DNA of 64,000 nt from Escherichia coli (GCF_050320075.1 NZ_CP190018.1); one strand, 5' to 3'; numbered from the stretch's first letter, positions 12,949 through 18,894 are shown. Notes: generated from the letters alone by a model not told the origin. Translations and numbers: made by a program.

Positions 12949-12962
12949 TTGATAACGATCAA
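12949..12962 (+). promoter_or_regulatory. FNR box TTGAT-AACG-ATCAA upstream of ydhY
   Basis: Perfect match to FNR consensus TTGAT-N4-ATCAA, about 200 bp upstream of ydhY ATG in an AT-rich region. Confidence 0.75.
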
Positions 12963-13163
12963 TGTTAAGGGCTCAGAATAATCACATTATTTTTTCTCCT
13001 AATCATAAAGGATTAGTTTATCGGCGTTAAATCTTTTCTCATACACTATCGGGTTAGGGAAAATATCTGGTGTTGGGGACAGAGTCAGCAGCGTATTAGT
13101 TGAATGCTTAATATCAGACTGCTGAATTGTCAGCACTGTGTTTGCGAAGAGGATGCGAAATAA

Positions 13164-13790
13164 ATGAACCCGGTTGATCGTCCACTATTAGATATTGGCT
13201 TAACGCGATTAGAATTCTTGCGTATATCAGGAAAAGGCCTTGCTGGTCTAACAATTGCCCCTGCGTTACTGTCACTTTTGGGTTGCAAACAGGAAGATAT
13301 TGATAGCGGCACAGTAGGGTTGATAAATACACCCAAAGGGGTGCTGGTGACCCAGCGAGCGCGATGCACGGGTTGCCACCGCTGTGAAATCTCTTGTACC
13401 AACTTCAACGATGGCTCAGTAGGGACATTCTTCTCCCGTATCAAAATCCATCGCAATTATTTCTTTGGCGACAACGGGGTTGGCTCTGGCGGCGGCCTGT
13501 ATGGCGATCTCAACTATACCGCGGACACCTGCCGACAATGCAAAGAGCCGCAATGCATGAACGTCTGCCCGATTGGTGCGATTACCTGGCAGCAGAAAGA
13601 AGGCTGTATTACCGTCGATCATAAACGCTGTATTGGCTGTAGCGCCTGTACTACGGCATGCCCGTGGATGATGGCCACCGTAAATACCGAAAGTAAAAAA
13701 TCCTCGAAATGTGTGTTATGCGGTGAATGCGCAAACGCCTGCCCAACAGGGGCGTTAAAAATTATCGAGTGGAAAGATATTACTGTGTGA
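13164..13790 (+). CDS. ydhY: ferredoxin-like 4Fe-4S protein YdhY, 208 aa
   Basis: Several CxxCxxCxxxCP motifs (CTGCHRCEISC, CRQCKEPQCMNVCP, CIGCSACTTACP, CVLCGECANACP). Confidence 0.9.
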   Translation: MNPVDRPLLDIGLTRLEFLRISGKGLAGLTIAPALLSLLGCKQEDIDSGTVGLINTPKGVLVTQRARCTGCHRCEISCTNFNDGSVGTFFSRIKIHRNYFFGDNGVGSGGGLYGDLNYTADTCRQCKEPQCMNVCPIGAITWQQKEGCITVDHKRCIGCSACTTACPWMMATVNTESKKSSKCVLCGECANACPTGALKIIEWKDITV

Positions 13791-13810
13791 ATCTTGCAAA
13801 GGAAAAAATC

Positions 13811-16627: not shown

Positions 16628-17296
16628 ATGTCCTTCACTCGACGCAAATTTGTTCTGGGGATGGGAACAGTAATCTTTTTTACTGGTTCTGCGTCTTCTC
16701 TGTTAGCGAACACGAGGCAAGAAAAGAAAGTTCGGTATGCCATGATTCATGACGAGTCACGGTGCAATGGCTGTAATATTTGCGCCCGCGCATGCCGTAA
16801 AACTAACCACGTCCCCGCTCAGGGAAGCCGTTTATCGATAGCACACATTCCAGTCACCGATAACGACAACGAAACGCAGTATCACTATTTTCGCCAGTCA
16901 TGCCAGCACTGTGAAGATGCTCCTTGCATCGACGTATGCCCGACAGGGGCGTCGTGGCGTGATGAGCAGGGGATCGTGCGGGTAGAAAAATCGCAGTGCA
17001 TCGGCTGCAGTTATTGCATTGGCGCTTGTCCTTACCAGGTTCGCTACCTTAACCCTGTCACTAAAGTGGCAGATAAATGTGATTTCTGCGCTGAGTCCCG
17101 ACTGGCAAAAGGCTTTCCGCCCATTTGCGTCAGCGCCTGTCCGGAACACGCATTGATCTTTGGTCGCGAAGATAGCCCAGAAATTCAGGCGTGGTTGCAG
17201 GAAAATAAATACTATCAATATCAGCTACCTGGTGCCGGGAAACCGCACCTGTATCGCCGGTTCGGTCAACATTTGATTAAAAAGGAAAATGTATGA
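16628..17296 (+). CDS. ydhX: Tat-signal ferredoxin-like 4Fe-4S protein YdhX, 222 aa
   Basis: Internal ATG at 16628; twin-arginine motif MSFTRRKFVLGMG; multiple CxxCxxCxxxCP motifs. Confidence 0.88.
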   Translation: MSFTRRKFVLGMGTVIFFTGSASSLLANTRQEKKVRYAMIHDESRCNGCNICARACRKTNHVPAQGSRLSIAHIPVTDNDNETQYHYFRQSCQHCEDAPCIDVCPTGASWRDEQGIVRVEKSQCIGCSYCIGACPYQVRYLNPVTKVADKCDFCAESRLAKGFPPICVSACPEHALIFGREDSPEIQAWLQENKYYQYQLPGAGKPHLYRRFGQHLIKKENV

Positions 17297-18078
17297 ACCC
17301 GTCGCAACATGCTGAACAGTTTCAGAGCCAGTTGGCGAACTATGTGCCACAGTTCACTCCCCAATTTTGGCCGGTGTGGTTGATCATTGCCGGACTATTG
17401 CTGGTAGGGATGTGGTTTGTGCTGGGGCTGCATGCCTTGCTTCGTGCTCGTGGCGTGAAGAAATCAGCCACCGACCATGGTGAGAAGGTTTATCTTTACA
17501 GCAAAGCGGTCAGATTATGGCACTGGTCGAATGCGTTACTCTTTGTATTGTTGCTGGCAAGTGGGCTGATAAATCACTTTGCGCTGGTGGGCGCAACTGC
17601 GGTTAAAAGTCTGGTTGCGGTGCATGAAGTTTGCGGATTTTTGTTACTGGCATGTTGGCTCGGCTTTGTTCTGATCAATGCCGTTGGGGGTAATGGTCAC
17701 CATTATCGCATTCGTCGTCAGGGGTGGCTGGAGCGAGCGGCAAAACAAACGCGATTCTATTTGTTTGGCATTATGCAGGGGGAAGAACATCCTTTCCCGG
17801 CAACAACACAGTCTAAATTTAATCCCTTACAGCAGGTTGCCTATATTGGTGTCATGTATGGATTGCTGCCGTTGTTACTATTGACGGGGCTGCTGTGTCT
17901 CTATCCGCAAGCCGTGGGAGATGTGTTTCCTGGCGTAAGATACTGGTTATTGCAGGCGCATTTTGCTCTGGCATTTATAAGCCTCTTTTTTATCTTCGGT
18001 CATCTTTATCTTTGCACCACGGGGCGTACGCCACACGAAACCTTTAAAAGCATGGTCGATGGCTATCACCGGCACTAA
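17293..18078 (+). CDS. ydhU: PhsC/cytochrome b-like membrane subunit YdhU, 261 aa
   Basis: 261-aa polytopic membrane protein; ATGA overlap with ydhX. Confidence 0.88.
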   Translation: MNPSQHAEQFQSQLANYVPQFTPQFWPVWLIIAGLLLVGMWFVLGLHALLRARGVKKSATDHGEKVYLYSKAVRLWHWSNALLFVLLLASGLINHFALVGATAVKSLVAVHEVCGFLLLACWLGFVLINAVGGNGHHYRIRRQGWLERAAKQTRFYLFGIMQGEEHPFPATTQSKFNPLQQVAYIGVMYGLLPLLLLTGLLCLYPQAVGDVFPGVRYWLLQAHFALAFISLFFIFGHLYLCTTGRTPHETFKSMVDGYHRH

Positions 18079-18081
18079 CGA

Positions 18082-18894
18082 ATGATCATTACACGAGCAG
18101 ACCTGCGAGAATGGCGTATCGGAGCGGTGATGTATCGCTGGTTCCTGCGCCATTTCCCACGCGGCGGTAGTTATGCCGATATTCATCATGCACTGATTGA
18201 GGAAGGATATACGGACTGGGCGGAGAGTCTGGTTGAGTATGCGTGGAAAAAATGGCTGGCGGATGAAAACTTCGCGCATCAGGAAGTTTCCTCTATGCAA
18301 AAATTGGCCACAGATCCCGGAGAGAGACCATTTTGCAGTCAGTTTGCCCGCAGCGACGATCATGCTCGCATCGGCTGTTGTGAGGATAATGCCAGAATCG
18401 CAACCGCTGGGTATGCCGCGCAAATTGCCAGTATGGGTTATAGCGTGCGGATTGGAAGTGTCGGCTTTAACAGTCACATTGGCAGCTCCGGTGAACGCGC
18501 ACGGGTTGCTGTAACCGGTAATTCTTCGCGGATAAGCAGCGCTGGAGATAGTAGTCGGATTGCGAATACCGGAATGCGAGTACGCGTTTGTACATTGGGT
18601 GAACGGTGTCATGTCGCCAGTAATGGTGACCTGGTGCAAATCGCCAGCTTTGGCGCAAACGCCAGAATTGCCAACAGCGGCGACAATGTACACATCATTG
18701 CCAGCGGTGAAGATTCAACAATAGTGAGCACGGGCGTGGTCGACTCAATTATTCTCGGGCCAGGGGGAAGCGCCGCACTGGCATATCATGACGGCGAAAG
18801 AGTTCGCTTCGCCGTCGCCATTGAAGGTGAAAACAATATTCGAGCCGGAGTCCGCTATCGTCTTAATGAACAGCATCAGTTTGTTGAGTGCTGA
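18082..18894 (+). CDS. ydhT: uncharacterised protein YdhT, 270 aa, central nonapeptide repeat region
   Basis: 270-aa ORF; periodic I-A-S-x-G-x-x-x-R repeats in the central region. Confidence 0.85.
   Translation: MIITRADLREWRIGAVMYRWFLRHFPRGGSYADIHHALIEEGYTDWAESLVEYAWKKWLADENFAHQEVSSMQKLATDPGERPFCSQFARSDDHARIGCCEDNARIATAGYAAQIASMGYSVRIGSVGFNSHIGSSGERARVAVTGNSSRISSAGDSSRIANTGMRVRVCTLGERCHVASNGDLVQIASFGANARIANSGDNVHIIASGEDSTIVSTGVVDSIILGPGGSAALAYHDGERVRFAVAIEGENNIRAGVRYRLNEQHQFVEC

Follow-up and report, generated by a model that had tools for sequence, protein, structure and literature searches.

What does the ydhYVWXUT gene cluster of Escherichia coli make, on which side of the inner membrane does its product work, and in which direction do electrons run through it? 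We addressed these questions for the copy of the cluster at positions 12949-18894 of a 64,000-nucleotide stretch of E. coli DNA (GCF_050320075.1, NZ_CP190018.1), the whole of which is referred to here as the window. Taken as a whole, the evidence is best explained by a membrane-bound redox enzyme that is switched on by the regulator FNR, faces the periplasm and passes electrons from quinol to a substrate, an explanation that we regard as reasonably likely. For topology and direction holding jointly, we put the chance at even or slightly better.

The proposed mechanism is as follows. When both oxygen and nitrate are absent, an FNR dimer bound ~42 bp upstream would activate a class II promoter starting at ~12998, while expression may be modulated by NarL/NarP, at a site that covers the start region, and by Fur, at a site further upstream. 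Electrons would pass from the quinone pool to YdhU (two haems), then to YdhX (four clusters), YdhY (four clusters) and finally YdhV, whose [4Fe-4S] cluster and Mo-bis-molybdopterin (bis-MPT) cofactor, with Cys336 as a ligand, would act on a probably non-aldehyde acceptor. The favoured direction, from menaquinol to substrate, would make the complex a low-priority anaerobic terminal reductase. YdhV-YdhY would be exported by hitchhiking on the twin-arginine translocation (Tat) signal of YdhX, the N-terminus of YdhY probably survives, anchoring the protein in the membrane or through a lipid or else serving as a docking peptide, and YdhW and YdhT may be cytoplasmic assembly or escort factors. In this scheme, gene identities, motifs, conservation and gene context come from the present analysis, control by FNR, NarL and Fur and the Mo cofactor from the literature; we infer the topology, the path and direction of the electrons and what YdhW and YdhT do.

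The identity of the locus is virtually certain: it is the known E. coli ydhYVWXUT operon under FNR control. The region 12700-19000 shares 100% DNA identity with E. coli YZLc1-3 and, over 6.3 kb, 98.2% with K-12, whose operon (b1674-b1669) has the same gene order and FNR box, with strain-level differences only (e.g. 97% protein identity for YdhW and 96% for YdhU). RefSeq labels the genes ydhY, ydhV, ydhW, ydhX, phsC (= ydhU) and ydhT, and each of the six proteins scores above the curated cut-off of its NCBIfam equivalog. The genes all lie on the plus strand and are separated, from ydhY to ydhT, by 20, 3, 63, -4 and 3 nt, the negative value being a 4-nt overlap of the ydhU start with the ydhX stop. 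A preliminary description of the locus, made from the sequence, had recognized six co-directional, tightly packed genes that encode two poly-ferredoxins, one of them (YdhX) with a Tat motif, a PhsC-like membrane subunit and a repeat protein, preceded by a perfect FNR consensus, and each of these features was recovered here. The cluster is covered to at least 80% in 5,396 of 5,426 complete E. coli genomes. Coverage is below 80% in ~30 complete genomes, and in E. coli AMSCJX03 (NZ_CP058355.1) the match to the query is limited to its first 138 nt (fumD), the ydh cluster being apparently absent. The locus in the window shows no anomaly relative to K-12; its sequence is ordinary for E. coli.

The catalytic subunit YdhV (13811-15913, 700 aa; 13811 is the annotated start, and the mechanical open reading frame (ORF) begins at 13727) matches NCBIfam PRK09849 over its full length at 1372 bits (cut-off 868). 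All of its matches are to models of the aldehyde:ferredoxin oxidoreductase (AOR) family, and PF02730 and PF01314 are recorded on its orthologues. The YdhV clade (Class V, clade 41; see below) has no solved structure, and the PDB sequences closest to YdhV are those of AOR, FOR and BamB, the match to BamB having E = 2.7e-44 over the N-terminal domain. Five cysteines, C307, C310, C314, C558 and C336, show no variation among 80 sequences that span many phyla; the first four are the ligands of the single, proximal [4Fe-4S] cluster. Cys336 is a metal ligand as in BamB, and the second-shell residues of AOR are absent from the YdhV clade (PMC12096430). The bis-Mo-MPT cofactor that YdhV binds is redox-active, and no substrate of the enzyme has been found (Reschke et al. 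2019, Biochemistry 58:2228, reported in PMC9103625 and PMC13328260), in line with the earlier statement that it carries a pterin cofactor and has an undefined substrate (see also PMC12096430). According to the literature, the E. coli version prefers Mo over W. A classification of June 2026 places YdhV in the Class V tungsten/molybdenum oxidoreductases (WORs), clade 41, which are membrane-associated and periplasmically oriented and include no member with an assigned activity; one of them, CsWOR41 of Cetobacterium somerae, was tested on 46 aldehydes with uniformly negative results (PMC13328260). Because of the BamB-type cysteine ligand, the absent second-shell residues and the negative aldehyde tests of CsWOR41, YdhV probably does not function as an aldehyde oxidoreductase. 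The family assignment made in the preliminary description stands, supported by PRK09849 and the PDB matches, while the function implied by the family name probably does not (PMC12096430), and the RefSeq product name, aldehyde:ferredoxin oxidoreductase, is best taken as naming the family and nothing more. Membership of YdhV in the DMSO reductase family, whose cofactor is bis-MGD (MGD, molybdopterin guanine dinucleotide), was considered and rejected, given that only AOR-family models match and that apo-YdhV does not bind bis-MGD (PMC9103625). The three-subunit respiratory enzymes of the DMSO reductase type, with their catalytic subunit, four-cluster protein and anchor, are similar in architecture, but YdhV is not a member.

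The two ferredoxin subunits and the membrane subunit suggest how YdhV may be wired. YdhY (the small subunit, "WorS"; 13164-13790, 208 aa; PRK09898 at 436.7 bits) and YdhX (16628-17296, 222 aa) each contain 16 cluster cysteines arranged in four [4Fe-4S] motifs. Among other NCBIfam families, YdhX matches NrfC best (247.8 bits, under the NrfC cut-off), with further matches to TtrB, DsrO and DmsB. YdhU (annotated phsC; 17293-18078, 261 aa) matches PRK15006, the PhsC equivalog, at 457 bits, and HyaC- and FdnI-type models more weakly. It has five hydrophobic segments, and His77, His111, His223 and His237 are invariant in 18 sequences; a PDB sequence search with YdhU returned chance matches only. From these features, YdhU is predicted to be a two-haem cytochrome b of the PF01292 type with a presumed quinol/quinone site.

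Export signals differ between the two ferredoxins. YdhX begins MSFTRRKFV and carries a canonical Tat signal (MSFTRRKFVLGMGTVIFFTGSASSLLA), in which the TRRKFV motif is accompanied by a hydrophobic region and a cleavage site of the A-x-A type; the arginine pair is invariant in 16 orthologues. Its start was set at 16628 rather than at 16577, where the mechanical ORF begins, because the Shine-Dalgarno sequence of the latter abuts the ATG, whereas 16628 is properly spaced (GGGGA, 7 nt upstream) and opens on the Tat motif. Residues 1-42 of YdhY (13164-13290) form a signal-like stretch with LTRLEFLR, a hydrophobic region and an LLGC lipobox in which the second arginine is missing, the twin-arginine motif being degenerate (TRLEFLR). 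The E. coli Tat-substrate list includes YdhX and omits YdhY (PMC7549933). YdhY homologues from lineages lacking YdhX, all of them at most 57% identical in our comparison, uniformly carry [ST]-R-R-x-F-[LVM]-K. In the lineages that carry YdhX and YdhU, every YdhY has lost the second arginine, and YdhX keeps its RR in the same loci. The position is occupied by L in 12 of the 12 enterobacterial loci in which the N-terminus is covered, and by Q or K in Telmatospirillum-type relatives. The rest of the YdhY signal is conserved, namely S/T before the arginine, F-L-R after it, the hydrophobic region and an L-x-G-C lipobox. The L/Q/K variation within this clade indicates relaxed constraint on precisely that YdhY residue. 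The association of RR loss with the presence of YdhX is a phylogenetic correlation that may reflect a single event. That the loss in YdhY tracks YdhX seems to be an under-described point.

To place these subunits in a wider context, YdhV was scanned for in one genome per species, yielding 79 loci, followed by tblastn and ORF clustering; the scan was built on a 10-sequence YdhV alignment, a 21-sequence alignment being too divergent. YdhY lies directly upstream of YdhV in most of the 79 loci, and YdhW is present in 71. Among the scanned loci, YdhX and YdhU are confined to Escherichia, Citrobacter, Budvicia, Proteus and Brenneria; inspection of further contigs added an alphaproteobacterial Telmatospirillum metagenome-assembled genome (MAG) and two unclassified metagenome contigs. 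YdhT formed 47 clusters among 5.8 billion proteins, and all of the named ones are from Enterobacterales. The distribution across these genomes marks YdhY-YdhV-YdhW as the cross-phylum core, YdhX/YdhU as an addition of a proteobacterial subclade and YdhT as one of Enterobacterales. In four loci (L061, L065, L069 and L076), which come from MAGs of Deltaproteobacteria type and of Nitrospiraceae, a YdhU-like cytochrome b is encoded between YdhY and YdhV. Elsewhere, recurrent neighbours are FdhD-type sulfurtransferases, TatA, TatC, MoeA and LuxR-type regulators, with tatA and tatC adjoining Y-V-W in ~10 loci. Collinsella loci encode a Cgr1-like membrane cytochrome c, and Coriobacteriia loci a PhsA-like subunit of the bis-MGD (molybdopterin) type, another ferredoxin and a large regulator of the LuxR type. 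These neighbours point to a Tat-exported enzyme with its own cofactor maturation genes and varied membrane wiring. In 11 Coriobacteriia loci (L023, L024, L028-L031, L035, L038, L042, L053 and L055), the YdhY gene is divergent from YdhV, and the Coriobacteriia arrangement is typical of substrate-inducible reductases in Eggerthellaceae. Antisense ORF "families" also recur inside ydhV in the locus comparison; recurrent neighbour clusters C4-C8, C12, C13 and similar ones proved to be other-frame ORFs inside ydhV or ydhY and were judged spurious.

The two remaining proteins lack signal peptides. YdhW (15917-16564, 215 aa), whose RefSeq K-12 start lies 9 nt downstream of the first ATG, has an internal duplication and a confident predicted model of tandem winged helices; on this predicted fold, a chaperone of the TorD/DmsD/NarJ type, with its all-alpha TorD-like fold, was rejected. 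YdhT (18082-18894, 270 aa, with 18894 the end of its stop codon) has an N-terminal helical domain and, at residues 95-229 (18364-18768), ~15 nonapeptide repeats of the form [AS]-R-I-A-S-x-G-[DE]-[NS], predicted to fold as a beta-solenoid. YdhT relatives in Budvicia, Proteus and Edwardsiella have ~50 extra residues of repeats. Neither YdhW nor YdhT has a family in the Pfam-A release used; the newer families PF27264 (YdhW_C) and PF27195 were seen as precomputed labels only.

Expression of the cluster is tied to anaerobiosis by its promoter. The FNR box TTGATAACGATCAA (12949-12962), a perfect TTGAT-N4-ATCAA, is the sole match to TTGATNNNNATCAA on both strands of the window, where 0.08 matches are expected. 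In an alignment of seven ydhY upstream regions (that of the window, that of a divergent E. coli and those of five Citrobacter-type loci), the half-sites match at 10 of 10 positions in all of them, 207-239 bp before the ydhY ATG; K-12 has the same perfect half-sites. Boxes in Budvicia, Proteus and Brenneria are weaker, with at most 8-9 of 10 positions, and two of these loci (L012 and L027) have no FNR-like box of at least 8/10 upstream of ydhY. Published chromatin immunoprecipitation sequencing (ChIP-seq) of FNR and FNR-dependent expression place ydhYVWXUT in category 1, with an FNR site at -42.5 (PMC3688515); FNR activation, stated in the preliminary description, is thereby supported, and the FNR ChIP that it proposed at the box had already been published. 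A -10 hexamer, CATTAT, is predicted from the sequence at 12985-12990 on the plus strand, implying a start at ~12997-12998, and its spacing from the FNR centre (12955.5) is compatible with a class II promoter. The published -42.5 likewise puts the start at about 12997-12998, which fits the -10 position. CATTAT lies within a block, AATAAYCACATTAT, that is invariant across the Escherichia/Citrobacter alignment. In vitro, sigma-S RNA polymerase is preferred at the ydhY promoter (PMC3141248). The resulting 5' leader (12998-13163, plus strand, ~166 nt) ends in 27 nt (13137-13163, including the Shine-Dalgarno sequence) that are identical across Escherichia and Citrobacter. Its predicted fold is not unusual (z -1.5), and an Rfam scan of 12400-19200 at E<=1 gave zero matches, so that no known riboswitch, including the molybdenum cofactor riboswitch, was found in the leader. 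Footprinting and anaerobic induction, which the preliminary description had likewise proposed as checks, were reportedly also published, by Partridge et al. 2008.

Four blocks are conserved in the Escherichia/Citrobacter upstream region: the FNR box, AATAAYCACATTAT, a Fur-like box and an inverted repeat at 13000-13015. The conservation of these promoter elements in Citrobacter is a new detail of the present analysis. The Fur-box-like sequence TCAAATGATAATAAATATC (12896-12914) precedes the FNR box by ~45 bp. It agrees with the 19-bp Fur consensus at 14 of 19 positions and has a core, AATGATAATAAAT(A/C)TCAC, common to both genera. A Fur ChIP-seq peak at the ydhY promoter and Fur regulation of ydhYVWXUT were reported for strain CFT073 (PMC7157518), and the candidate box fits this peak. 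The 7-2-7 inverted repeat TAATCAT-AA-AGGATTA (13000-13015, ~+3 to +18) is NarL/NarP-like, with two mismatches to TACYYMT-NN-AKRRGTA, and the Citrobacter version, TAACCCT-AA-AGGATTA, changes only at degenerate Y and M positions of the consensus. No exact NarL heptamer (TACYYMT, or relaxed TACNNNT) is present in 12850-13170. Control of the ydhY operon by FNR, NarL and NarP, with nitrate-linked repression, is reported to have been characterised by Partridge et al. 2008 (Microbiology 154:608), which other papers cite for it. The repeat may be the site of this repression; a repressor at +3 to +18 would block initiation.

We now weigh the proposed reductase against its rivals. Its periplasmic orientation is favoured because the RR of YdhX is invariant, YdhY homologues outside the clade with YdhX and YdhU all have a canonical Tat motif, tatA and tatC adjoin Y-V-W, and the published orientation of Class V WORs concurs (PMC13328260). 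The preliminary description had proposed a membrane-linked redox complex, periplasmic or cytoplasmic; the architecture stands, and the Tat evidence narrows the choice towards the periplasm. YdhV must be exported already folded with a partner because it lacks a signal peptide and, as the second arginine of YdhY is lost in E. coli, export there probably uses the YdhX signal. The reductase direction is favoured because the operon is on with FNR and off with nitrate, YdhX and YdhU together resemble the quinol-oxidising NrfC/PhsBC, and Collinsella has its Cgr1-like cytochrome c. The dmsABC and frdABCD operons are likewise activated by FNR and repressed by nitrate.

Several points weigh against this reading. 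Cytochromes b of the FdnI/HyaC type also run as donor:quinone oxidoreductases, and the uptake hydrogenase Hyd-2 is nitrate-repressed too, so regulation alone does not fix the direction of electrons. NarL-like 7-2-7 repeats are no more frequent in the window than chance predicts (3 found, 3.0 expected). The suggested roles of YdhW and YdhT derive solely from their missing signal peptides and generic predicted folds. E. coli YdhY has R-L in place of R-R and does not appear among listed Tat substrates (PMC7549933), which leaves export of YdhV-YdhY putative. Finally, the literature offers neither a substrate nor an activity nor a mutant phenotype for Ydh, and no purification of the holoenzyme (PMC13328260, PMC9103625).

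The same complex may run in reverse, with YdhV oxidising a periplasmic donor, either an aldehyde or another reduced organic compound, and electrons passing via YdhY, YdhX and YdhU to quinone. Most characterised AOR/WOR enzymes do oxidise aldehydes, and YdhU has matches to the models for HyaC and FdnI, two cytochrome b types in which the members characterised so far are quinone-reducing; formate dehydrogenase-N and uptake hydrogenases feed electrons into the quinone pool in this manner. We nonetheless consider reversal rather unlikely, in that YdhX and YdhU match best the quinol-oxidising NrfC and PhsC, the YdhV clade has a BamB-type Cys ligand and lacks the AOR second-shell residues (PMC12096430) and CsWOR41 was inactive on all of the aldehydes offered (PMC13328260).

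Another arrangement, which we judge improbable, would keep YdhV-YdhY in the cytoplasm of E. coli and export only YdhX, with YdhU passing electrons through the membrane between periplasmic YdhX and the cytoplasmic enzyme, or with the two modules working separately. TRLEFLR in 12/12 enterobacterial loci, R-Q or R-K in the other relatives bearing YdhX and YdhU, the omission of YdhY from the Tat-substrate list (PMC7549933) and the lack of signal peptides in YdhW and YdhT would all agree with it. Against it, the remaining YdhY signal and its lipobox are strongly conserved, although a signal no longer in use should decay, YdhX would be left in the periplasm with nothing catalytic to serve, and all relatives lacking YdhX are clearly Tat-targeted. 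We return to the exported, quinol-linked enzyme, for which a more specific version can be put forward tentatively: in the proteobacterial lineage that gained YdhX and YdhU, Tat targeting may have been handed from YdhY to YdhX, so that YdhV-YdhY hitchhikes as part of a BamB-like periplasmic reductase of a non-aldehyde organic acceptor, with the YdhY N-terminus perhaps retained to anchor the enzyme or to dock with YdhW. Lastly, that the FNR-like box arose by chance, in front of six independently expressed genes of unrelated function, is hardly credible and already contradicted by published data, for although at least one perfect box arose in 8 of 100 shuffles of the window, the box and its spacing to the -10 are kept in Citrobacter, FNR ChIP-seq and expression data are published (PMC3688515), the gaps between genes run only from -4 to 63 nt, and synteny holds for Y-V-W across phyla and for Y-V-W-X-U in the Telmatospirillum MAG, the two metagenome contigs and Enterobacterales.

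Comparison with known systems shows where the proposed reductase would stand. Besides the K-12 operon, its closest known systems include Class V WOR clade 41, e.g. the L-S-W arrangement of CsWOR41, which shares the YdhV-YdhY-YdhW core and a periplasmic orientation via the small subunit (PMC13328260) and often has FdhD, TatC and MoeA genes nearby; compared with this clade, E. coli adds YdhX, YdhU and YdhT, and its small subunit has lost the second Tat arginine. BamB shares with YdhV the AOR-family fold, the Cys metal ligand and the lack of AOR second-shell residues. Different from Ydh, with its Tat signals and quinone-linked cytochrome b, BamB is cytoplasmic and works in the electron-bifurcating BamBCDEFGHI complex. 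As for thiosulfate reductase PhsABC and NrfCD, the quinol dehydrogenase of nitrite reductase, both of which provide periplasmic reductases with an iron-sulfur protein plus membrane anchor, YdhU scores above the PhsC cut-off and the Tat-exported YdhX resembles NrfC most, whereas the Ydh catalytic subunit is of the AOR-family bis-MPT type rather than the bis-MGD DMSO reductase family, Ydh has two ferredoxin subunits in series and E. coli lacks phsAB.

The surroundings of the cluster delimit it as a unit. Upstream, fumD ends at 12708, and directly 3' of it lies a strong, intrinsic-terminator-like hairpin (12713-12741, plus strand) with a 12-pair stem, 6 G-C pairs and a T-rich tail, the predicted upstream boundary that sets the ydhY transcription unit apart from fumD. 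Downstream, ydhS is convergent with ydhT, 11 nt beyond it. A minus-strand mechanical ORF of 248 aa (17947-18693), antisense to ydhU/ydhT, is probably owed to the richness of the ydhT coding sequence in repeats. Elsewhere in the window, at 3057-3214, three overlapping Fur-box-like matches (14-16 of 19) are the strongest of their kind; from the K-12 gene order, we take them to be probably the sufA promoter.

Our data support the preliminary description as a correct interpretation that matches the published state of knowledge and is not a new finding. The ydhYVWXUT operon belongs to the last respiratory-type molybdoenzyme operons of E. coli without an assigned substrate and, with Class V WOR relatives common in gut bacteria (PMC13328260), discovery of that substrate would matter. 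The sequence of the window brings it no closer than published K-12 data do. What the comparison adds are leads, namely the Y-V-W core as against the X-U and T add-ons, the loss of RR in YdhY exactly where YdhX is found, and the predicted folds of YdhW and YdhT. These comparative results suggest why YdhV purified alone is inactive, and they offer modest leads on how the enzyme may be exported and assembled.

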